DNA of 64,000 nucleotides from Acidobacteriota bacterium (GTDB taxonomy: Bacteria > Acidobacteriota > UBA6911 > RPQK01 > JAJDTT01). The notes beneath the pieces are model-generated. The model was not told the origin of the DNA. It saw only the letters and a list, made by a program, of their open reading frames with translations, and did no database searches. The position numbers and the translations under genes are program-made. Positions within the stretch are counted from its first letter, which is position 1; each line of letters starts with the position of its first letter. Positions 22,807 to 49,297 of the stretch are shown piece after piece. The stretch covers positions 983,890 to 1,047,889 of the forward strand of contig CBDCLS010000004.1 of the NCBI GenBank assembly GCA_965218775.1. The letters run 5' to 3'.

Positions 22807-23940
22807 ATGACCTCTCTCTCAAGTAAATTGCTACTCGCTCTGAGTGTACTGGCGATCGTGAGTCTCTCGATCGCGATCGGCGCTGCTGACACGCCCATTC
22901 CCGACCTCTCAGGAAAGATCTTGACGGTGAAGGGACCCATCGAGCCAAAGCTACTGGGACCTACCATCATGCATGAGCACGTCCTGATCGACTACCGGGG
23001 AAGACCCGAAGAACGGATCAAGAGCGCCACTGATGCGAGTTTCTACGAGGAACCTGTCTCCCTCGGCAACCTCAGCAAGATTCGGACCTGGGTTTCTGAA
23101 AACCAGGACAATCTGCTGCTAGGCGACGTCGATCTGGCCCTCCACGAAGTCCTGGATTTCAAGCGCTGGGGAGGTAGTGGGATCGTCGACTGCACCAGCA
23201 TCGGCCTGGGAAGGGACCCCTCCGGCCTGCTCCAGGTCTCCAATGCCAGCGGTCTGCACCTGATCATGGGCTCGGGATTCTACGTTGAGAGCTTTCACCC
23301 CCCGGACATGGACCAGCGAACCGTCGATGACCTGACCAAGATCATCATCCGTGACGTCACGGTCGGAGTCGCCGGGACCCCGATCCGCTCCGGGATCATC
23401 GGAGAAGTCGGGGTTGCCAGGGGATTGAAAGCAAGTGAGCTGAAGGGTGCGCGAGCAGCAGCCCGAGCCAGCCGCGCCACCGGAGCAGCCATCTCCTTTC
23501 ATCATGCGGGTGCGGGAGAGGAGAAGTTCACCACTCTCGACCTGGTCGCCTCCGAGGGAGCGGATCTGAACCGGGTCATCATCGGCCATGCCAACCACAT
23601 TGCTACCGATATTCCCTACATGAAACGGCTGCTCCAGCGGGGCGTGTATATTCAGTTCGACCTCTTCGGAGAGGTGATTCCGCGGCTGGGCCGCATCCAT
23701 GACTATGAGGTCGCGCAATCCATCGTCCAGCTGGTAAAGGACGGTCATGCCAATCGGCTCCTCCTCTCCCAGGACGTGTGCACCAAGTCCATGCTGAAGA
23801 CCTACGGAGGTATGGGTTTCTCCTACGTCATGGAATTCGTGCTGCCCGAGTTGCGGAGGTTGGGGGTGGCAGAGGACGCTCTCCGGCTGATCATGGTTGA
23901 GAACCCCAGAAGGGTCCTGACCTTTGCCAAGCCTGGTTAA
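22807..23940 (+). CDS. phosphotriesterase family protein (PTE / PLL-like metal hydrolase), secreted
   Basis: The signature GPTIMHEHVLID is present. It has a signal peptide and a TIM-barrel length. Confidence 0.7.
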   Translation: MTSLSSKLLLALSVLAIVSLSIAIGAADTPIPDLSGKILTVKGPIEPKLLGPTIMHEHVLIDYRGRPEERIKSATDASFYEEPVSLGNLSKIRTWVSENQDNLLLGDVDLALHEVLDFKRWGGSGIVDCTSIGLGRDPSGLLQVSNASGLHLIMGSGFYVESFHPPDMDQRTVDDLTKIIIRDVTVGVAGTPIRSGIIGEVGVARGLKASELKGARAAARASRATGAAISFHHAGAGEEKFTTLDLVASEGADLNRVIIGHANHIATDIPYMKRLLQRGVYIQFDLFGEVIPRLGRIHDYEVAQSIVQLVKDGHANRLLLSQDVCTKSMLKTYGGMGFSYVMEFVLPELRRLGVAEDALRLIMVENPRRVLTFAKPG

Positions 23941-24017
23941 CTCCCAAGATACAAGACGCAAAATACCCGAAATCTTGCGCTGGGAGTGCCGTGGCCGCCG
24001 TCAGGTGCAGCCACTTG

Positions 24018-24326
24018 TTAGTCAGCCTTGCGGCTTTCAAGCCACCGGCGCAGCGAGGTCTGGGTCTCACCGGAACGTCGCCCAGCCAGAAGACCCTCGA
24101 TGCTGATGTCTTCGTCCAAGTCGGGCCAGTGAATCCCTTCTCCTTCCCCAATGAGGCGCCAACGTCCGCGTTCGGCTGCGCTGCCATGTGCAAGGCGGGG
24201 GTACCAGGTCAGCGGAACAGCGATCATACGACCGTCGACAAGATCGACCACCAGCGCGTCTTCGGTCACCGACACGTGTTGAGCCCTTGCCTCGCTGGTG
24301 TCGCTCCGTGATGGTGAAATACTCAT
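24018..24326 (-). CDS. DUF2442 family protein (part of a DUF4160/DUF2442 TA-like pair)
   Basis: Motifs are DGRMIAVPLTWYPRL...ERGRWRLIGEGEGIHWPDLDEDIS. Confidence 0.6.
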   Translation of the reverse strand: MSISPSRSDTSEARAQHVSVTEDALVVDLVDGRMIAVPLTWYPRLAHGSAAERGRWRLIGEGEGIHWPDLDEDISIEGLLAGRRSGETQTSLRRWLESRKAD

Positions 24327-24329
24327 CCC

Positions 24330-24597
24330 ACATTCTCAGAAAGAGTTGCTCTTGTTCAATCACAAGCCGCTCAGGCCTCTGAAGCTCCACAGCGCCAAAA
24401 CCGCCGCTCCGAGCCAACCGTACAGGGCCAAGCCAGAACTTTGCACGGTTCGCCTCCCGTTCGACGTGAACGTGCGCGGGTTCGTTGCGGTCGGCCGAGT
24501 AAAAAAAGAACCGATAGGGACCCTCGCGATGAACCGTCGGCACGACATAAGTAGTTCGCTTGGTCGATCGTTCTCGGCGATTTGCGAGCGCCTCCAA
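24330..24597 (-). CDS. DUF4160 family protein (the 3' end is uncertain)
   Basis: The N-terminus VPTVHREGPYRFFFYSADRNEPAHVHVEREANRAKFW matches DUF4160. The track ORF has no stop until 24067, so the natural stop may be lost. Confidence 0.5.
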
Positions 24598-24623
24598 GCG
24601 ATTCCGATTCTCGATTCGGCCTG

Positions 24624-24917
24624 GCTAAACAGAGCGTCTTAAGTCTACGGTAACGTTTGTGGCGAGCGCGACGGGTCGAGGGCGCGAAGCGTCTCGACGC
24701 GAAGCGACGACGAGGCGATGCTTGGTATCGTAGAGGAGGAGCGACAAAGCCATCGGCCCGTCCCGTCGCCACCCGCGGGGCAGAGGGGGGTTGTGGACGA
24801 TCTCTGCGTGGGTCGTCGTCGAAGATGGCCAAGCATCGACTTTCTCCTCCCGCCTTGATCTCGCCTCACAAGCCCCCTCTGCAAACGTCACCGTAGACTT
24901 AAGACGCTCTGTTTAGC
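24624..24917. repeat. MITE-like palindromic repeat, copy 2
   Basis: It has the same conserved core as 2340-2615. Its own 28-bp terminal inverted repeat is gctaaacagagcgtcttaagtctacggt / accgtagacttaagacgctctgtttagc. Confidence 0.7.
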
Positions 24918-24923
24918 AGCTTG

Positions 24924-25238
24924 TTAGCGACCTCGCCCCCATTGCCGCCTCCGATTTCGACGACGCGGTGCGCGCGGGTTTGTCGGCTCCGAGTCGGAAG
25001 CGATGAGTTCGAGCGCAGCTCCGTACCTGGCAATCGTCGACACCCGAAGCTCCTCGTATTTTTCCGCAGGCACGCCGAATGCGGTGGCCGAGTACGCCCA
25101 GGCACACTGGCGAATCATGTCCCGGTCGAGCTTGGCGGAACACTCTGCGCAAAGGCAGAGATCGTCTACTGACGCGAACGCATCACACCCCTGGCAGTCG
25201 GCCTCAAAGGCTCCAAAATCAAGTTCGTCGTCGGGCAT
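24924..25238 (-). CDS. hypothetical Cys-rich small protein (zinc-ribbon-like CxxC...CxCxxC)
   Basis: This is an ORF only. It carries CQGCDAF...CLCAEC. There is no other support. Confidence 0.3.
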   Translation of the reverse strand: MPDDELDFGAFEADCQGCDAFASVDDLCLCAECSAKLDRDMIRQCAWAYSATAFGVPAEKYEELRVSTIARYGAALELIASDSEPTNPRAPRRRNRRRQWGRGR

Positions 25239-25352
25239 CGACTTCCTTCCTGTGTGCCGCTAACGTTCAGGCGATCAGCCGCGAGCGGCCCATCGCAATC
25301 GTACGAATTATACCCTTTCGCGACCGGGCCGCTCGTCGGCTGTAGCGGCTTG

Positions 25353-25688
25353 TTAGCCGGGCTCCTGACCCGCTCTAGTCAGCCAGTACAGCGGTCGCCG
25401 CTTTTGGTGCGCAACAGCGAGTACAAGCGAGGATTGGTGGTGGTGCTCAAAGGCGATGATATATGGAAATCATGCGACCGTCGCCTTGCGGATCATGGGT
25501 GAGCCCATACGAGTTCCGGTCCACCCCGAAAACGACTTCGGCATTTCGCCGATGCGCTCAAGAACCAGCTCAATAGCCGCTAGGAACTCACCGCCCAGGC
25601 CCGGGCGGCGTTCCTCGTACCACAGTGCCGCAGAACGAAACTCGGCTCGGGCTTCAGGATGAAGTTTGACCCGTGCGCCGCTGGGCAA
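25353..25688 (-). pseudogene. ParE/RelE-family toxin interrupted by an in-frame TGA
   Basis: The N-terminal segment VKLHPEARAEFRSAALWYEERRPGLGGEFLAAIELVLERI ends with ...IRKATVA, then a TGA at 25470-25472. The same frame continues FPYIIAFEHHHQSSLVLAVAHQKRRPLYW, which is the ParE C-terminal motif. Confidence 0.5.
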
Positions 25689-25902
25689 GTTCCTTCAGGA
25701 TCTCCTTCCGTACTGTCTCCCAGGCCAGCGCCTGAACGCGACCCTCAGCAACCTCTCGCGAACGCCGCTCCAACTCAGCCGCCCAAGCAGCGGAAACCTC
25801 GTCGTCGGACTCCTCGAGGCTGGAAAGGAGTTCTTCTGCTACTCGTGCACGCTCGCGGCGCGGCAACCGCAATGCTTCCACAAGAAGCTTGTCTGTGGAC
25901 AT
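25654..25902 (-). CDS. putative addiction-module antitoxin (TIGR02574-like)
   Basis: The sequence is MSTDKLLVEALRLPRRERARVAEELLSSLEE...EVSAAWAAELERRSREVAEGRVQALAWETV. It overlaps the ParE-like gene's 5' end. Confidence 0.55.
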   Translation of the reverse strand: MSTDKLLVEALRLPRRERARVAEELLSSLEESDDEVSAAWAAELERRSREVAEGRVQALAWETVRKEILKELAQRRTGQTSS

Positions 25903-26098
25903 GATGCCAGTTTGGCATACCGACCCGAGACCATCCTCTGCCAATTGGAACCCAATGCTGTCCGGCACCACCCAACGGAATGCGCTTCAGCGGCGTGCGC
26001 GCCACAAGATGTATTCGGGCCTTGCGCCAGTTTTGGGGAGCGGCCCGTCCGCTGCAAGCGCTTGTTGGGCAGCACTGCTAAGTGCTACGCTTTCCTTC

Positions 26099-26323
26099 AT
26101 GACCATCAAGGCGCGCGTCCGAGAAGGTCGACTCGTCGTCGACGAGCCGACGGAACTTCCAAATGGAACAGAAATAGACCTACTACCGCTCGACCCCGGC
26201 GACTGGCTCGATGAAGCTGACCGCGCAGCACTCCATGAGGCTCTGCGCCAGTCCGACACTGATGCCGCCGCGGGGAGACTCGTGGACGCTGAAGAGATTC
26301 TCAAGGACATCAGGTCGCGTTGA
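26099..26323 (+). CDS. antitoxin (DUF104/ParD-like) of an antitoxin-ParE pair
   Basis: The sequence is MTIKARVREGRLVVDEPTELPNGTEIDLLPLD.... It has a 4-bp overlap with the downstream toxin. Confidence 0.55.
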   Translation: MTIKARVREGRLVVDEPTELPNGTEIDLLPLDPGDWLDEADRAALHEALRQSDTDAAAGRLVDAEEILKDIRSR

Positions 26324-26625
26324 GGGACCGTCGCGTCCAGTTCACAGCGACTGCGCAACAACACGTCCGGCGAGAAAAGGCTTGGTGGCTTGAGAACAGA
26401 GTCCATACCGAGGTCTTTGCGACTGAACTCGAAACAGCCTTTCGAATCCTTACCCTCCTCCCTGGAGCTGGCACGCCTTATCCCGAAGCCGATGTGATTG
26501 GCATTCGTCGGTTGTATCTGCGAAAGATAGACTGTCATCTCTACTACACTTTCGACGAGCACGAAGTTGTCGTTCGTGCTTTGTGGGGTGCCCGTCGCCG
26601 TCGAGGACCGAAAATCACACAGTAG
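26320..26625 (+). CDS. ParE/RelE-family toxin
   Basis: A ParE-like N-terminus is present, together with the C-terminal motif GIRRLYLRKIDCHLYYTFDEHEVVVRALWGARR. Confidence 0.7.
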   Translation: MRDRRVQFTATAQQHVRREKAWWLENRVHTEVFATELETAFRILTLLPGAGTPYPEADVIGIRRLYLRKIDCHLYYTFDEHEVVVRALWGARRRRGPKITQ

Positions 26626-26749
26626 CTTTTCCTGAGTACATCTGTCCGCCCAACGGATTGGCCGCTCAGCGGCGCGACGCCTGCGGCGCGTCAACTGCCC
26701 CGCGGCTTGTTGGGCGGTCCAATCGCTCGTCTCTAAATCTGACTTGATG

Positions 26750-27645
26750 GGGCGCCTTGACGGAAACGCCACACTGAACCTAAGACTGGTCGAATCTGGT
26801 CCCGGATCGACTTTGAGAATAAACCCATCTCCGCGAAACTCTCCCTGAGAAATGAAGGCCGAGGGGGCGTAGACCGTGACCAGCGACTGCACGTATTCGT
26901 CACCCAATTTCAAAGCGGCTGGTGCTTCGAGCTTCGGTACCTCAGGGGGTTGATTTGAGTCGGGGACTGTCACTTGGCCGGGAGACGTCGTCTCCAGTTC
27001 TTCGAATGTGAACAGACCAAGGTGCTCCAGTACGTGAATGTGGCCCAGGCAGACCTTGAGTAGATGGTGTGTTGTGGTGTGAATTCGTTGAGTAGCTGCC
27101 TCCTCACACAGGGCGATGTGATCGCGGATCTGCGTCATCCGAGCACTGTCCTCCAGCCACCAGAAAGAACGACTCGAGCCAACACTTAGTTTGACGGGTA
27201 CGAATGTACCGGGGAGAGTTCGCGGATTAAGGTTGGGGTGATCGTTGATCACTCGTGTACCGATAAGGGCAATGCCACGACCCTCATAAGCTTCATCTGC
27301 ATGTGCGATCACACAGTTGCGAAGCTCCTTGAGAGCGTCGTGCATGGCGGTCTGCATTAGAGGCTTCACGTGTTTGCAGTTGGCCGCGCTTTCAAGGCCA
27401 GGGTTGTTCCTGTTGTCGCTCCAGGGCTTCCAGTACTCGATAACGATTGCCTTCGTATAGGCCATCTTGGCCTCGTAGCGAAGCTGGTCGAGGTCCTCGA
27501 CATACGCTTCTGCCATGCTGCGTGCCGCAGTCAGGCAAGTCCATAGCTGTACCGCTCCAGCCAGGTCGCGCCCGGGCCGCACCAGCTCTTGCCCAGCCTT
27601 GTCAATGTCAGCGGCTAGATCGATTTCGTTCTCGTGGCGGGTCAC
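26750..27645 (-). CDS. hypothetical protein (~300 aa credible); the 3' end is undefined
   Basis: The first ~300 aa have plausible composition. The same frame stays open to 25987, antisense through the ParE pair. Related hairpin repeats lie on both sides (26643-26712 and 27695-27775). Confidence 0.35.
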
Positions 27646-27766
27646 GTCATCGCCTTTGTACGAGGACGGTCAAGTTACTGATTTCGGATCGCCTCACTGT
27701 TAGATCCGCCCAACGGCTGGCGCATCAGCGGGGACGCGAGGCGTCGTCCCCGCCTGCATGCGCTGG

Positions 27767-27985
27767 TTAGCCATCGGATTTAGACTTTGTCGACTCTCTT
27801 TCGGCAATGAGTTGACGCACGGTGGATACGAGTTCTACAGGTACTTCCATCGTTGTATGCGTGGTCGCTTCGTAGACAGCTTCGTCTTCGGCCAACGCCT
27901 CCTCATCAGATTGGGACTCGTAGTGCTCAAGGACACGGCGGACTCGATCTTCATCCCATCCAGCTGGGTAGTTGGTTTTTTTCAT
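27767..27985 (-). CDS. putative antitoxin partnered with a BrnT-like toxin
   Basis: It has an acidic N-terminal half (WDEDRVRRVLEHYESQSDEEALAEDEAVYE). It overlaps the upstream DUF497-like gene by 4 bp. Confidence 0.45.
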   Translation of the reverse strand: MKKTNYPAGWDEDRVRRVLEHYESQSDEEALAEDEAVYEATTHTTMEVPVELVSTVRQLIAERESTKSKSDG

Positions 27986-28263
27986 GCTTTTCTCCTCAGT
28001 CTCCGCCGCAGGGCCTTCTTCGCCTTTGAACCGAGGTCGTAGGCCGTGATCACGAATGCTGAGCCCGCCTCGGGATCAGGAACATAGATCACTCGAAGGT
28101 AGCGGCCCTCGCTGGTTCGCCCAATCGCGACCCGTGATCCCTCTCGGCCATCCCGGTCTTCTAGTGGCCGCTCCAGCAACTCCTCGACCTCTTCTTCGTA
28201 TACCCCATGACGCCGCATATGCGCCATCCCGGTCGAAGAGTCGATATAGAAGCGTAACCGCAT
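27982..28263 (-). CDS. BrnT-like (DUF497/COG2929) RelE-fold toxin
   Basis: The RHGVYEEEVEELLERP...RVAIGRTSEGRYLRVIYVPD...FVITAYDLGSKAKKA pattern parallels the BrnT layout. Confidence 0.5.
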   Translation of the reverse strand: MRLRFYIDSSTGMAHMRRHGVYEEEVEELLERPLEDRDGREGSRVAIGRTSEGRYLRVIYVPDPEAGSAFVITAYDLGSKAKKALRRRLRRKA

Positions 28264-28609
28264 CCAATCATTCTAGCCCTTCCACGCAGAACGAAACGAA
28301 CTAGAAGTTCGGCTGCACGCCAACTGCTAACCGTTAAGCCGGAAGGACGATGGCCTGGGGCATCTTGTTGGAAGGATACTACCAACGGCGTATACAAGCA
28401 CAAATCGACACGCCCATCGCATGGTCAGTCCGCGCTCAATGCTTCGCCGCTGCGATTATTGCTGTGATAGCGCTTACTACTGATGCAATGGCTGCAATAA
28501 GCGCAAGCAACCAGAGGCGCAATTCTCGAATGGAACGCTCGGCTTGTGCGACCCGGCGTTGTAACTCGTGGTCAGGTGCGCGGCAAGCACGACCTGATGA
28601 ACTTTTCGC

Positions 28610-28712
28610 GATTGGATCTCCTTGGACATCCACACCTACCATCCAGTTCACAGAAACTGCGCGACAGCACGTTAAGCGAGAGGAAGCTTGGTGGCTTGAG
28701 AACCGGTATCTT
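28610..28712 (+). pseudogene. decayed duplicate of the antitoxin 3' end plus ParE 5' end (a TA-locus remnant)
   Basis: The stretch 28637-28700 (atccagttcacagaaactgcgcgacagcacgttaagcgagaggaagcttggtggcttgagaac) is ~85% identical to 26330-26395. It encodes IQFTETARQHVKREEAWWLENR and then diverges. Confidence 0.5.
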
Positions 28713-28740
28713 GGGATTTATTCCAGCTCCAACTTAGCCC

Positions 28741-30570
28741 CTACAGAGTAGAAAGAAAGGCGACTAGATCCGTGATCTCGGTCGGCGAGATCTTCTGATC
28801 CGGGTGTCGGTGGACTTCGAACACCTCTCTCAGGCTTTGGGCGCGGCCGTCATGGAAGAAAGAGGAGCGCAATCCGACCCCGCGCAGGGAGGGAGGGTTG
28901 AACTGGCGATTGCCAACTTCGTCGGCAAGACCGACGTCGGATGCACTCTTCGTCGTATAGGAGGGAGGCGCGTGGCAATGCTGACAGCCGCTGCTGACAA
29001 ACACTTCCCGGCCCTTTCGAACGGAAACTTCAGAGCTACTGGTAGGCAGCTGGGGTGGCTGCAGGGTGCGCAGAAATGTCTCCAGAGCTCGCACCTTTTC
29101 CCCTGAAGCAACCCGCGAGTGCAGCGTAGTCCGGAGCGACTTGCGGATCTGGTCTTCGAGAGCGGACATGCTGCCATTCCATGCCCAGGGGCCGCTGTCG
29201 CCCACACCGAGCAAGGACGGAACACGCTTAGGCGCACCGTAGTTCCCGTCGCCAAGCGTGTCGACGAGGAGCCCGTTGCTGTGTCCTTCCGAGTGGCAGC
29301 TGTGACAGCTCATCCAGCCGCGCAGCGAAAGCGTCGCGTCATAGAACAGCTGCTCACCCTTGTCTGCCAGAGTGAGATCGGCCTGCGCTCCAAGCGAGAC
29401 CTCCTTCACCGGCTTCCGGGAGGGGATGTCGATGACGGAAATCGAGTTCGAGAGCGTGTTGGCTACGTACAGACGCCCGTCCGAGCCAGAGGCCAGAGCC
29501 CTGGGACGGCGTCCCACCTTTACATGATCCAGGCGCGGCCAGGTGTGCTGACCGATGGCAACTCGGCCCACGCCCCCGACTGCCACGATTACCTCTCCAC
29601 TGGCTCCCACGATCACCTTCTGGGGGTCGCCGGAGGGAGTGCTGAAATCCCCCAGATCCAACGTACGCATGGCTGCCAGCATATTCCCGGTCGGCGAACG
29701 GATATCCGCTAGCCTAAGCGAAACCAGACTATTGGACATGAGTCCGCCCCACACAACGTCGTCGCGGTTGGCGCGGGCAAAAGGATCCAGGCTTTGCCGC
29801 GCCACGAGCAGATGTGAGCCGTCCGCGGTAACTGCCAGTCCACGTATGTTGTGGGCAGGCAGCTCCAAGACACGCTCTACCCGGTCCTGGGAAAGATCGA
29901 TCACTGCGAGCTTCCCACCGAAAGAGTCGGCCACCAGCAGACGGTCATCACCCGGCAAGACCACCTGCTCACGGGGTGCGAAGGGCAGCTCGAGTGAACC
30001 CAGCGAGCGAGGACCGGCAGCCGGATCCAACTCGATCAGGTCCAGGCGCCTGGACCACAGGCAGGCGACGAAACAGCGCCTTCCATCCGTGCTGATAGTC
30101 ACGCTGACGGGATAACGACCTACCGCGAGTCGATCCCGTACTTGAATGTCCCGAACATCTGGACCCGGGAGGGAAAGTAACAGGAGTTCGTGAGCTTCTT
30201 CGTCCACGGCCAACAGGCCACTTCCAATCGGGTCCCGGCTGGGCAAAAGGGCCAGGTCTCCAAGTGCTCTGCCCACCCTGGCCTCGAACTTCACCGCCAG
30301 CTCATCGGTGTCGATCACCGATAGGGTTCCGCTACGGCGGTTGGCTACGAAGAGCCGACGTCCTGGGTCGTCCAGGGCCAGTGCAACTGGATGTCGGATC
30401 AGGGCCTGGCGATGGAGAGAATCTGCATCGCTCCTATCCAGACTGGAGGCCCCTTTCGAGCCGTCGAAGGGCAAGGGAGGAGCAACGTGCTGAGCCTGGG
30501 ACCACTGGCACCAAAAAACGAGGAATGCCAGGAGGCAGGCGAGAACTCTCAATTCGCGGACCGTGGACAC
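28741..30570 (-). CDS. YVTN-type beta-propeller fused to a di-haem cytochrome c peroxidase (CCP/MauG family) domain, secreted
   Basis: There are two CxxCH motifs (CHSCH, CQHCH). CCP-like motifs are GPWAWNGS and FNPPSLRGVGL...FFHDGRA. The N-terminus has a repeated propeller. Confidence 0.7.
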   Translation of the reverse strand: MSTVRELRVLACLLAFLVFWCQWSQAQHVAPPLPFDGSKGASSLDRSDADSLHRQALIRHPVALALDDPGRRLFVANRRSGTLSVIDTDELAVKFEARVGRALGDLALLPSRDPIGSGLLAVDEEAHELLLLSLPGPDVRDIQVRDRLAVGRYPVSVTISTDGRRCFVACLWSRRLDLIELDPAAGPRSLGSLELPFAPREQVVLPGDDRLLVADSFGGKLAVIDLSQDRVERVLELPAHNIRGLAVTADGSHLLVARQSLDPFARANRDDVVWGGLMSNSLVSLRLADIRSPTGNMLAAMRTLDLGDFSTPSGDPQKVIVGASGEVIVAVGGVGRVAIGQHTWPRLDHVKVGRRPRALASGSDGRLYVANTLSNSISVIDIPSRKPVKEVSLGAQADLTLADKGEQLFYDATLSLRGWMSCHSCHSEGHSNGLLVDTLGDGNYGAPKRVPSLLGVGDSGPWAWNGSMSALEDQIRKSLRTTLHSRVASGEKVRALETFLRTLQPPQLPTSSSEVSVRKGREVFVSSGCQHCHAPPSYTTKSASDVGLADEVGNRQFNPPSLRGVGLRSSFFHDGRAQSLREVFEVHRHPDQKISPTEITDLVAFLSTL

Positions 30571-32606: not shown

Positions 32607-34080
32607 CTGGACATTCCCCATTTTTCAGAGGCCCAGAGGAAGCAGGGACAGCTGACGGGAGCTGGGATCGGGTCGAGCCCCGCCAATCCCGCTGTGGCGG
32701 CCGAATAGGAGCTGCTTGATGCCATCGGCTATGGCATAGAAGCGGAACTCCGGGATGCCGTAGATCCGTTTGGCTGCCTGCTCGATGTGTTGGACCAGAA
32801 GGGCCAGCTTGGCCCTTTTACCCAGATAGACACAGGCGAAGAAGGCGGCGATCATGACCAAGGCGGCCATATTGCGCAGGCGCTCATACTTGAGCAAACG
32901 GATGTCTTCCAACTCGTAGCTCTGCTTGATAAATCGGATCGTTTCCTCGACACGCCAGCGGCTCAGATAGCTCTCGACCACCCGCCACTGGCTCTTGCGC
33001 GAGCGTTTGACCGTCTGGTTCGTCAGAAGCATCAGGGGACGGGGGCCAAAGCCATCCACCACCACCAGGTACAGCGATTGGTCGAAACCGGGCAAACGCA
33101 CCCCTCGGGCCCCAAACTCCAACCGGTAGACCTTCTCCCCCGCACTCGTCTCCTTGATCACGACTTCCCGGTAGCGGCGCCGACAACCACGCGCCCACTC
33201 CTCGGCGCTCTTCTTGCTGCGCCCTGAGATCAGGTGACGATCCCCCCGCTGGCACACCAGGAACGGGTGTCCCCGCTTCAGCAGGACTTCGAGGATCTCC
33301 TCCCGATCCCCTCCCCGGTCCATCACCCAGATCCCTCGCCCTTGGGTGGCTTTGGAGACTCGCCCAATCGCCTTGAGGATCTCGTCGTTTTCGCTCACAA
33401 AGTCCGGCGCTTTCTGCGAGTACAGCTCCTGGTACAACGGCAGCACCTCGGCACTCCCCCGCCTCGCTCCGACCACCTCACAGCACCAGTATCCATCTCG
33501 GATCTCCCCTCGGGAGCCGTCCCGGACCCGCGCCAGGTATTGCATCTTCCGGGCATATGGCTTACTCACATCCGTGGGGTCCACAATCAACAGCGTCTCC
33601 TTCTCCACCCGCCAGGCCGCCAACTCCAGCAGATTCTTTCCCACCGCTCCTCTCAATCCCTGACGGTTGAGTTGGCGGCTCAGCCGCTCGATGACTTTCT
33701 TCAGAGCGATCTCCTCCTCCAGTGCTCGCGCAATCTCGCTGAGCCGGACCGACGCCCGACACTGCATCCCGTAGAGCACCTCCCGGATCAAACGAGCGGC
33801 GGTCTTCGGTAATCCTTCAGAGACCTTCCCCGAAAATTCTCTCAGCTGCTCTCGAATCTTCCACGCTACTTTGGCATCATGCATCTGGGTCCCTCCGCTT
33901 AATTGGTTGTTGGGTTTGGAGTTCCGCCAACCAGTCTAAGCGCTAGGGACCCACACTTTTGGGGGTCGACAGTTCCCCCATTTTCTCCCAATTTCAACCC
34001 ATCCCACTTCCCTTATCGCCCTACTCTCTTGTTCTCAACTACTTGAGAGAATTCACCCTCAATTTTTGGGGAATGTCCTG
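32607..34080. mobile_element. IS element (DDE transposase, IS4/ISAs1-like), 1474 bp, with a 9-bp target-site duplication
   Basis: The terminal inverted repeat is ctggacattcccca (32607-32620) / tggggaatgtcctg (34067-34080), with 1 mismatch. It is flanked by the direct repeat ataccttgc at 32598-32606 and 34081-34089. Confidence 0.75.
32625..33884 (-). CDS. DDE-type transposase
   Basis: This 419-aa ORF fills the IS element. Its features are transposase-like (DDE_Tnp_1-like). Confidence 0.7.
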   Translation of the reverse strand: MHDAKVAWKIREQLREFSGKVSEGLPKTAARLIREVLYGMQCRASVRLSEIARALEEEIALKKVIERLSRQLNRQGLRGAVGKNLLELAAWRVEKETLLIVDPTDVSKPYARKMQYLARVRDGSRGEIRDGYWCCEVVGARRGSAEVLPLYQELYSQKAPDFVSENDEILKAIGRVSKATQGRGIWVMDRGGDREEILEVLLKRGHPFLVCQRGDRHLISGRSKKSAEEWARGCRRRYREVVIKETSAGEKVYRLEFGARGVRLPGFDQSLYLVVVDGFGPRPLMLLTNQTVKRSRKSQWRVVESYLSRWRVEETIRFIKQSYELEDIRLLKYERLRNMAALVMIAAFFACVYLGKRAKLALLVQHIEQAAKRIYGIPEFRFYAIADGIKQLLFGRHSGIGGARPDPSSRQLSLLPLGL

Positions 34081-47663: not shown

Positions 47664-48428
47664 ATGATCATTGTGAGAAGGCGCTCTTCTTTACCGGTCT
47701 TCTTGATCCGCGTGGGTCTTGCCTTGGTCTTCGCGGCCGGTTTGTACTTTCTACACGCTCCTCTGCTGAATCGGCTGGGACAGATCCTGGTTCATCAGGA
47801 TCCTTTGCGTCCTGCCGACGCCATTACGGTCATCCCTGGCCCCGGCAGGGAGCGGATGAGGACTGGGATACGGCTCTTCAAAGAAGGATTCGCGGAGAAA
47901 CTGATACTCTGCGGGTCTTGGCCAGATTCACTGGTCAAAACGGCACTCAACGCCGGCGTTCCCTCCTCACAAATCGTGTACCGCAAATCAACTCCAGAGG
48001 ACTATCTCTGTTGGAAATGCTCGGTCCCCATCAGTGGTACGGCCGGGGATGCCCAAGTGATCGTGCAACTTCTGGAGACTTCAGGGATGGACAGCATCAT
48101 CGTGGTTACCTCGGACTACCACAGCGCCCGCACCGCTTCGGCGTTTCGACAACTTCTCAAGAACAAACCAATTGTGATGATGGTCCAACCCACCCAGGAG
48201 CAGTTCCCCGATCTCAACAGCTGGTGGGAAGACCGCTACAGCGCCCGGCTGGTAACGGGGCAACTGCAAAAGACCGTGTTTTCACTGTTCTCCGAGCAGC
48301 TGCCGGATTGTCTTCTGCATCCGATTCAGGACCCTTTGTCTAACGTGGCCGGGAAGCTCAGGTCCCTACTCCTATCCCAACCCGACTTCATGAGGCAGGG
48401 ATTACGCGGCGAACAAGGTCAGGACTAG
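47664..48428 (+). CDS. DUF218 / YdcF (SanA/ElyC-like) family protein
   Basis: The DUF218 core is ITVIPGPG...LILCGSW...VTSDYHSARTASAF. It has an N-terminal transmembrane segment. Confidence 0.55.
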   Translation: MIIVRRRSSLPVFLIRVGLALVFAAGLYFLHAPLLNRLGQILVHQDPLRPADAITVIPGPGRERMRTGIRLFKEGFAEKLILCGSWPDSLVKTALNAGVPSSQIVYRKSTPEDYLCWKCSVPISGTAGDAQVIVQLLETSGMDSIIVVTSDYHSARTASAFRQLLKNKPIVMMVQPTQEQFPDLNSWWEDRYSARLVTGQLQKTVFSLFSEQLPDCLLHPIQDPLSNVAGKLRSLLLSQPDFMRQGLRGEQGQD

Positions 48429-48701
48429 TACGCTGTAACACAGATTATGACGGATTTATGGCGAGCGCGACGGGTCGAGATCGCGAAGCGACGACGAACG
48501 CCATGCTTGGCCATAGTGGAGGAGGAGCGACAAAGATATCGGCCCGTCCCGTCGCCACCCGAAGGGCAGATGGGGGTTGTGGACGATCTCTGCGTTGGTC
48601 GTCGTCGAAGATGACCAAGCATCGTCTTCCTCCTCCTGCCTTGATCTCGCCCCACAAGCCCCATCTGCAAATCCGTCATAATCTGTGTTACAGCGTACTA
48701 G
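48425..48701. repeat. MITE-like palindromic repeat, copy 3
   Basis: It shares the conserved core. Its own terminal inverted repeat is ctagtacgctgtaacacagattatgacggatttatg / caaatccgtcataatctgtgttacagcgtactag. The left end supplies the TAG stop of the DUF218 gene. Confidence 0.7.
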
Positions 48702-49297
48702 CCTGAGAGGCGCGGAAACAGCTTGCCGGTCCGCTTCTGGTAGCCGCGGTAGTCGTCCCCGAAGCGTTTAATCAGGTTCTCTTCTTCCTTCGTCGTACGG
48801 ATGAAAATCAGAGCGAAGGCGAGCCCTCCGGTCAGGGCCAGAAACCAGTTCGCTGTCGCCAAGGAGTCAGCAACGATGATCAGCCCAAATGCGAGGTAGA
48901 AGGGATGGCGAACCCATCGATAGGGACCCCAGGTGACAAGCGTGTGCTCGAGTCGGGTGACGACCGTATCAGTCAAATTGGTGCCCAAGCTCCGGAATAC
49001 CCAGACCAGAAGGCTCGCCGCAACAACTCCGATACCAACGCCAGACCATCGCAGCCAGATCGGCAGACCAACCTTGGACCAGACCATCCATTCTGGGTTG
49101 ATCAACCAAGCGAAGAGTCCGATCATCCTGAAAAGGGCAATCGGGCGCAAAGTCGCGAGGACGAACAGGCCTTCCTGTCGTCGATCCAGCGTCTCACCCG
49201 AGGCCTGAGACTTGAGTCGATGGTAGACCCCGATAGGGAATATGGCAGCAAATCCAATGATGAGGATAAGGCGAAACGTCTGATCGGCTTCCGTCAT
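48698..49297 (-). CDS. isoprenylcysteine carboxyl methyltransferase (ICMT) / phospholipid methyltransferase family membrane protein
   Basis: The ICMT pattern is GPYRWVRHPFYLA...EE..L...FG..Y..Y. It is multi-transmembrane. Confidence 0.6.
   Translation of the reverse strand: MTEADQTFRLILIIGFAAIFPIGVYHRLKSQASGETLDRRQEGLFVLATLRPIALFRMIGLFAWLINPEWMVWSKVGLPIWLRWSGVGIGVVAASLLVWVFRSLGTNLTDTVVTRLEHTLVTWGPYRWVRHPFYLAFGLIIVADSLATANWFLALTGGLAFALIFIRTTKEEENLIKRFGDDYRGYQKRTGKLFPRLSG

Follow-up and report, generated by a model that had tools for sequence, protein, structure and literature searches.

A 64,000-nucleotide stretch of an Acidobacteriota bacterium (GenBank assembly GCA_965218775.1, contig CBDCLS010000004.1, positions 983,890 to 1,047,889; hereafter the window) carries an island of short genes, several of them toxin-antitoxin (TA) modules, between a phosphotriesterase (PTE) gene and a cytochrome c peroxidase (CCP/MauG) gene. 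Within the island lies a minus-strand open reading frame (ORF) that starts with GTG at 27645 and meets no stop down to 25987, a run of 552 codons in the ORF listing of the window. The initial annotation had described a gene of about 300 amino acids without a recognisable family, placed between a ParE pair and a BrnT/BrnA-like pair. The open frame was confirmed and so were the neighbours, a ParE_toxin gene on one side and a DUF4258 gene with a weak BrnT match on the other (Table 1), and no family of Pfam, NCBIfam, PADLOC or PHROGs reached threshold on the ~300-aa protein. Here we describe the island as a probable integron cassette array without a nearby integrase, the ORF as a candidate HEPN-like cassette gene, and its missing stop codon as a likely loss within its own recombination site.

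The ORF is bracketed by two related imperfect palindromes at 26648-26715 and 27708-27772, both containing CCCAACGG..(T)GG(C)CGC..CAGCGG. Two hairpin repeats had been noted earlier at 26643-26712 and 27695-27775; their positions were nearly right, whereas the window holds four copies rather than two, one per gene module end. A rigid 24-nt repeat pattern with mismatches found only one copy, since the copies differ by insertions and deletions, and a gapped pattern together with covariance models was needed to find the repeats. The pattern CCCAACGG-N(0-30)-CAGCGG occurs three times in the window (starts 25971, 26649 and 27709, all on the + strand) against 0.03 expected from shuffles, and the fourth, more divergent copy at 25255-25362 was added by a covariance model.

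The repeats begin with RYYYAAC and finish with the complementary GTTRRRY, the form of R'' and R' boxes. In the interior, a brief unpaired spacer leads to a second stem with L boxes and extrahelical bases, capped by a loop that varies in length. The terminal boxes of the four window sites (GCCCAAC/GTTGGGC, ACCCAAC/GTTGGGC, GCCCAAC/GTTAGCC and CGCTAAC/GTTAGCC) agree with those of integron attC sites, and so does the predicted fold, a hairpin of -23 to -35 kcal/mol with a length of 65-101 nt and variable loops. A scan with a 23-nt motif of one genome per species returned 14 loci (Acidobacteriota, Chloroflexota, Ignavibacteria, a gammaproteobacterium and others), 11 of which contain the whole palindrome, ending GTTRGGC. 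The covariance model of the family holds 19 conserved pairs. Its first version, R1, was built from 13 sites including those of the window and matched 25255-25362, 25967-26074, 26645-26719 and 27705-27776, all on the + strand, where scores were 51-80 bits; the opposite strand gave 23 bits at most. The second, R2, was built from 44 sites of other genomes only, with the window sites excluded, and recovered exactly the four window sites (Table 1; E values refer to 64 kb searched); elsewhere in the 64 kb it gave one weak opposite-strand echo of a window site (E 0.047) and nothing more below E 0.9. An Rfam search of the window found no family.

In the loci fetched from Acidobacteriota, Chloroflexota and gammaproteobacterial contigs, such sites line up in one orientation as arrays of 3-11, separated by cassettes of 0.15-1.7 kb, and the four window sites are likewise co-oriented at a spacing of 678-1060 bp. 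Two of the fetched arrays directly adjoin an integrase homologue: tblastn with an IntI1 query sequence matched locus L014 at 50% identity over 332 residues (E 8e-89) and the edge of locus L005 at 57% identity over 127 residues. Because the model of external sites recovers them, and because related sites form arrays and adjoin IntI homologues, the four palindromes are identified, on covariance evidence, as attC sites of a family used by real integrons. This gives a definite class to the att-type sites that had been suspected in the hairpins.

Since the two end boxes are near-complements of each other, the orientation of the sites must come from asymmetries. On the + strand, the unpaired bases of the 3' arm lie at positions 16 and 23 from the 3' end in sites c and d and in the family consensus, and at positions 16 and 20 in site f; the register is less clear in site e. 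The attCaadA7 sequence gives the same position numbers when counted from its 3' end. Positions 16 and 20-24 are those of the extrahelical bases of attC bottom strands, G16/T23 in attCaadA7 and G16/A20/T24 in attCoxa2 (Nivina et al, PMC5027507). In 31 of 38 cassettes of related arrays, the longest ORF is encoded opposite the model strand, and in both L014 and L005 intI sits at that end of the array which becomes upstream when the model strand is taken as the bottom strand. As unpaired bases, ORF strand bias and intI position agree, the + strand of the window is read as the attC bottom (recombining) strand and the array on the minus strand; a test by match of the reconstituted R' box to the site's own R'' box did not discriminate. 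By these sequence asymmetries, the HEPN-like gene is placed in forward orientation in the array with its own attC behind it (26715 to 26648).

In both Acidobacteriota loci with an integrase, the IntI homologue (L014, 5693-6688; L005, 3-383) lies upstream of the array and is co-directional with the cassettes, which differs from known arrays; in class 1 integrons, intI is transcribed divergently from the cassettes.

When the canonical crossover between G and TT within R' (PMC5027507) is applied to the covariance-model sites, the HEPN-like cassette would extend from 27713 to 26654 (1060 bp). It would open at the crossover point of the attC_f R' box, between 27714 and 27713, end at the boundary between 26654 and 26653, and consist of a 68-nt leader, the ORF and its own attC.

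From right to left, the island reads as a DUF4258 gene with its partner followed by attC_f, the HEPN-like gene followed by attC_e, an inverted parDE module followed by attC_d, an Unstab_antitox gene with a ParE gene followed by attC_c, a 104-aa ORF, and a DUF4160/DUF2442 pair. A cluster of attC sites lacking an integrase is by definition a CALIN (PMC4889954). With no IntI in the window, the region from 24.0 to 28.7 kb between the PTE and CCP/MauG genes is probably a small cassette array of this kind, and this layout replaces the unusual gene organisation that the initial annotation had considered. A promoter and terminator scan of the island did no better than shuffles. Neither R1 nor R2 matched the structures that follow the 104-aa ORF (24625-24917) and DUF2442 (23935-24023), which are treated as unconfirmed sites; the latter is an attC-like palindrome (GGTTAAC ... 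GTTAGTC) that lies at the island's distal end and overlaps both the PTE stop codon and that of DUF2442.

Precedents exist for CALINs, for TA-rich cassette arrays and for HEPN cassettes. The island resembles CALIN and sedentary chromosomal integron arrays rich in TA cassettes (Cury et al, 2016, PMC4889954; Richard et al, 2024, PMC13108822) in several ways: two or more co-oriented attC sites occur within less than 4 kb of one another with no nearby intI, the short cassettes carry one or two genes each, TA modules make up several of them, including an inverted one, and signs of decay are present. It differs in its attC family, which comes from Acidobacteriota, Chloroflexota and other non-Vibrio contigs and has C16 in place of G16 and a 5/2 spacer. 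This attC variant, common to several non-proteobacterial phyla, is new here.

The public record of the window protein (P0001, P0060) gives 492 aa with a start at Met61. The 60 residues before Met61 (27463-27645, - strand) are conserved in relatives, which likewise start with GTG, and the true start is therefore placed at 27645. The close relatives P0002 (307 aa) and P0003 (309 aa) are 73% and 62% identical, and a profile search of 1.84 billion representatives returned 55 family members, mostly of 280-315 aa, 18 of which score below 1e-30. This previously unannotated HEPN-like family is new here. Protein-pattern scans of species-representative genomes and JGI metagenomes found no further loci, and no other member was present among the 44 related cassettes fetched.

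An alignment of 33 members shows no variation at Y71, R109 and H115 and hardly any at H102, A114, P150 and F294. The core motif H..L.ELR(N)...(V)AH.D has the form Rx5H with mostly N after the R, which agrees with the HEPN motif, and helix 2 carries an acidic residue (E/D70). The AlphaFold (AF2) model (pLDDT 81.5, pTM 0.73) predicts helices at 11-54, 57-75, 100-113 and 167-201, a beta-hairpin between the latter two, and a small beta domain at 218-293, and Rx5H falls where the third long helix ends and the next loop begins. The Rx4-6H motif of HEPN domains has the same helix-3-end position and a polar residue after R (Anantharaman et al, PMC3710099). The one Pfam family matched by many members was HEPN_AbiU2 (PF18734; 10 of 33, best E 0.005). 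In three members scored individually, the match covers the motif (profile positions 113-141) with 12-14 bits against the gathering threshold of 26.8 bits, which the family does not reach, and for the window protein there was no match. Nothing consistent came from PADLOC, NCBIfam and PHROGs; a PDB sequence search and Foldseek against PDB and BFVD gave nothing significant, the structure matches being generic helical bundles.

On the motif and the predicted fold, we lean towards a distant HEPN family related to AbiU2. The likeness to lactococcal AbiU2 and HEPN_AbiU2 consists of the Rx4-6H motif with a polar residue after R, the stand-alone gene and the weak matches on the motif, whereas scores of about 14 bits or less against 26.8 make the family at best a distant sister of PF18734 and not a member. 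A tenable but less probable alternative is that the protein is no HEPN nuclease and that its R...H pair serves another function, for instance binding, in a helical-bundle protein. It would account for the sub-threshold scores of all library matches and for the generic helical bundles in the structure searches; it leaves aside the joint HEPN signature, in which R and H are invariant at a spacing of five, a polar residue follows R, E/D70 lies in helix 2 and the motif stands where helix 3 ends, and the matches of ten members to HEPN_AbiU2, located on the motif in the three with listed coordinates.

Within a HEPN reading, the N-terminal helical bundle with Rx5H would be the RNase domain and the small C-terminal beta domain a putative sensor or oligomerisation module. 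By analogy with Abi-type RNases, the protein may act as a stand-alone growth-arresting or phage-triggered RNA cleaver, so that both RNase activity and a defence role are predicted. The cassette holds a single ORF, which follows the leader and reaches its own attC, and no adjacent partner of the type II TA kind is present. One distant homologue adjoins an AbiJ_NTD4 gene. Phage protection by cassettes with a single HEPN or AbiU2 gene has been reported for Vibrio integrons. The defence or abortive-infection role first proposed for the gene is in this sense plausible, if weakly, from the conserved Rx5H motif and the weak AbiU2 matches. Compared with the integron HEPN cassettes Vpc_cass2 (PDB 3jrt), HEPN-AbiU2 HNPBCG_15845 of V. 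mimicus and 'Esos' of a V. cholerae integron, the window protein has no detectable sequence similarity, is larger (~300 aa), comes from a different phylum and has a function that is predicted; its model adds a beta-hairpin between helices 3 and 4 and the C-terminal beta domain.

The window protein can be aligned with its relatives as far as ...FPSRRPI (residue ~300, nt ~26746), which leaves about 10 codons to the gene's own attC. The relatives do have a defined C-terminus: after the conserved end (...SRRPI / SRKP), stops come 7, 9 and 3 codons later in P0002, P0003 and P0004, and the homologues include proteins of 307, 309 and 302 aa. In the window, the frame reads on past the homology as ...KSDLETSDWTA-Q-Q..., and the GCC-CAA-C in this run (26715 to 26709) forms the R'' box of the attC that belongs to the gene. 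Four other forward-oriented cassette ORFs of the array stop at the TAA of an R'' or R''-like box in the same register (xxC-TAA-C; Table 1). The stop of the HEPN-like gene is thus missing within its own cassette, at its own R'' box, and the neighbouring parDE cassette determines only what the run-on reads.

The R'' box reads GCCTAAC in 19, GCCGAAC in 11 and GCCCAAC in 11 of 53 family sites, and 7-8 of 23 TAA-bearing R'' boxes in related arrays close an open frame that is 60 codons or longer. With T in place of C at coding-strand position 26712, the box would contain TAA and the protein would have 311 aa. The simplest reading of these sequences is that the stop was lost by a single T-to-C change at 26712: the last ORF of an array cassette would normally end at the R'' TAA, and GCCCAAC would here replace GCCTAAC or GGCTAAC. 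The run-on would then be a defect, not a feature. A stop codon that lies within a recombination site and is then lost is, as a concrete case, new here.

Translation, if any, would run on through attC_e and then through 660 nt antisense to parDE. It is improbable that the resulting 552-aa product is a real functional protein in which the extension, or its overlap antisense to parDE, would have a role. A second, ENA assembly of the locus (L021; 99.98% identical, 4 differences in 21.5 kb, none at the CAA) shows the same open frame, and the NCBI and ENA gene callers both give the 492-aa protein, but two genomes this close are uninformative on selection. The run-on tail has no counterpart in any homologue and has the Ser/Arg/Ala-rich composition of an antisense translation. 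Across ParE it is a codon-aligned antisense frame, and its length is unremarkable because ParE lacks TTA, CTA and TCA codons in the matching frame and long open stretches are common, with 50 of at least 240 codons in the window.

The initial annotation had proposed that the 3' end of the gene was replaced when the antitoxin-ParE module inserted, which would leave the hairpins as generic repetitive extragenic palindromic (REP) or terminator-like repeats. The open frame does continue into the parDE module and the palindromes are GC-rich hairpins. Nevertheless, compared with its relatives of 302-309 aa, the protein lacks nothing up to a point about 10 codons short of attC, and the cassette junction (26654/26653) lies beyond the gene's attC, 60 nt past the expected stop point. 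Moreover, the repeats are confined to the island within the window and their family forms arrays adjoining IntI homologues, which makes this explanation very unlikely. A sequencing or assembly error is the least credible explanation: the single base 26712 decides between CAA and TAA, but the independent assembly L021 agrees in this base and in the 492-aa gene call, so that an error limited to one assembly is unlikely.

Since in this attC family the R'' box routinely supplies the stop and its position 4 can be T, C or G without destruction of the site, single R'' substitutions could conceivably switch a cassette protein between termination and downstream fusion. Stop loss might then be an inherent means of silencing toxic cassettes, for instance one with a HEPN nuclease, or of forming C-terminal variants, rather than a simple defect; we regard this as a long shot.

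As a whole, the favoured reading, an attC/CALIN array with a HEPN-like cassette gene whose stop was lost in its own attC, is one that we consider likely. Several observations weigh against it. No integrase lies in the 64-kb window, where the IntI1 tblastn had a best E of 2.4, and the locus is thus not a complete integron. At extrahelical position 16 the base is C (T in site c) where G is usual, and the unpaired spacer between the R and L boxes, normally about symmetric, has one arm of 5 nt and one of 2 nt. Among the R'' boxes of the family, GCCCAAC is a frequent variant in its own right (11 of 53 sites). Finally, the closest homologues (L001, L002) and two distant ones (L017, L020) are not flanked by the same attC family; the protein family is therefore not restricted to cassettes.

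Other lesions are found in the island. The cassette-4 ParE gene (25353-25688, - strand) has an in-frame stop at 25470-25472; its read-through translation scores 26.6 bits with ParE_toxin and spans positions 1-88 of the 89 in the profile, and the gene's natural end is the TAA in the attC_c R'' box. A degenerate, truncated second parDE copy at ~28470-28750 (+ strand), in which 28642-28703 is 84% identical to 26336-26397, abuts the end of the CCP/MauG gene, which suggests truncation of a formerly longer array at its upstream, integrase-proximal end. With the ParE nonsense codon and the truncated parDE copy as other signs of decay, a stop-loss lesion fits a stranded array. The DUF4160 ORF (24067-24597, - strand) has no stop after its domain end ...WDEYF and runs for ~86 codons out of frame across DUF2442; it may be a second stop-less gene in the island.

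With these results, an unassignable gene between odd hairpins becomes part of an annotated structure, a chromosomal CALIN with TA modules and a probable HEPN effector. The database gene model, 492 aa from Met61 and running through another operon, would be corrected to a likely native product of ~311 aa with a GTG start. The family of 55 representatives joins the candidates for integron-carried single-gene anti-phage or growth-arrest systems, and the overlap of recombination site and stop codon in this attC family is relevant to gene callers and cassette annotators.

Table 1. Features of the cassette island (window coordinates; strand as read along the array or gene).
Feature	Coordinates	Strand	Details
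attC_c, attC of Unstab_antitox/ParE-like cassette	25258-25358	-	R1 61.1 bits; R2 41.6 bits, E 9e-8
attC_d, attC of parDE cassette	25970-26070	-	R1 79.5 bits; R2 66.7 bits, E 8e-14
attC_e, attC of HEPN-like cassette	26648-26715	-	R1 51.3 bits; R2 33.7 bits, E 7e-6; hairpin -25.4 kcal/mol
attC_f, attC of upstream DUF4258/antitoxin cassette	27708-27772	-	R1 54.2 bits; R2 39.0 bits, E 4e-7
HEPN-like cassette ORF, family-conserved part	26713-27645	-	311 codons to in-frame CAA of attC R'' box
Run-on of HEPN-like ORF, non-conserved	25987-26712	-	241 codons, same reading frame
R'' box of HEPN-like gene's own attC	26709-26715	-	GCC-CAA-C in ORF frame
HEPN-like cassette, inferred extent (1060 bp)	26654-27713	-	TT of preceding R' to G of own R'
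parDE-type genes	26099-26323 (antitoxin); 26320-26625 (ParE)	+	Pfam ParE_toxin E 8e-5
DUF4258 (BrnT-like) toxin and 72-aa partner	27982-28263 (toxin); 27767-27985 (partner)	-	Pfam DUF4258 E 4e-7; BrnT match weak
Unstab_antitox antitoxin and ParE gene	25654-25893 (antitoxin); 25353-25688 (ParE)	-	Pfam Unstab_antitox E 6e-15
Distal island	24018-25238	-	104-aa ORF 24924-25238; DUF4160/DUF2442 pair 24018-24597
R''-box stop, 72-aa antitoxin	27767-27769	-	GGC-TAA-C; attC_f
R''-box stop, ParE gene of cassette 4	25353-25355	-	GGC-TAA-C; attC_c; after reading through internal nonsense codon
R''-like-box stop, 104-aa ORF	24924-24926	-	CGC-TAA-C; no attC-model match
R''-like-box stop, DUF2442	24018-24020	-	GAC-TAA-C; no attC-model match

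Two further elements were noted in the window. An element of ~290 nt is present in three + strand copies (2340-2616, 24625-24917 and 48425-48712), the second of which lies within the cassette array where an attC would be expected; relatives occur in loci L023-L075, ~27 distinct copies were found in metagenomes, and no Rfam family matched. Its core of ~210 nt is nearly invariant, begins with TGGCGAGCGCGACGGGTCGAG, and is closed by a stem of 24-35 bp. The sequence of this stem is wholly different in each window copy, yet its pairing is nearly perfect, with 35 and 33 mismatch-free bp in two copies and a single mismatch in the one within the island. Of the 24 closing-stem pairs in a 25-sequence alignment, 23 show compensatory double changes. 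The overall number of pairs with double changes is 28, compared with 10.0 ± 2.0 in shuffles (0 of 500), and the paired share of cells, 95.5%, drops to 33-44% on sliding. The predicted shape is a closing stem with two long hairpins (-102 kcal/mol). As the stems are variable, transposase-recognised inverted repeats are argued against, and the element may be an undescribed structured RNA or single-stranded DNA element, or a palindrome kept perfect by arm-to-arm conversion. The other element, at 32607-34080, is an insertion sequence with terminal inverted repeats GGACATTCCCC.../...GGGGAATGTCC and a 419-aa DDE_Tnp_1 transposase, and is absent from the otherwise 99.98% identical assembly L021.

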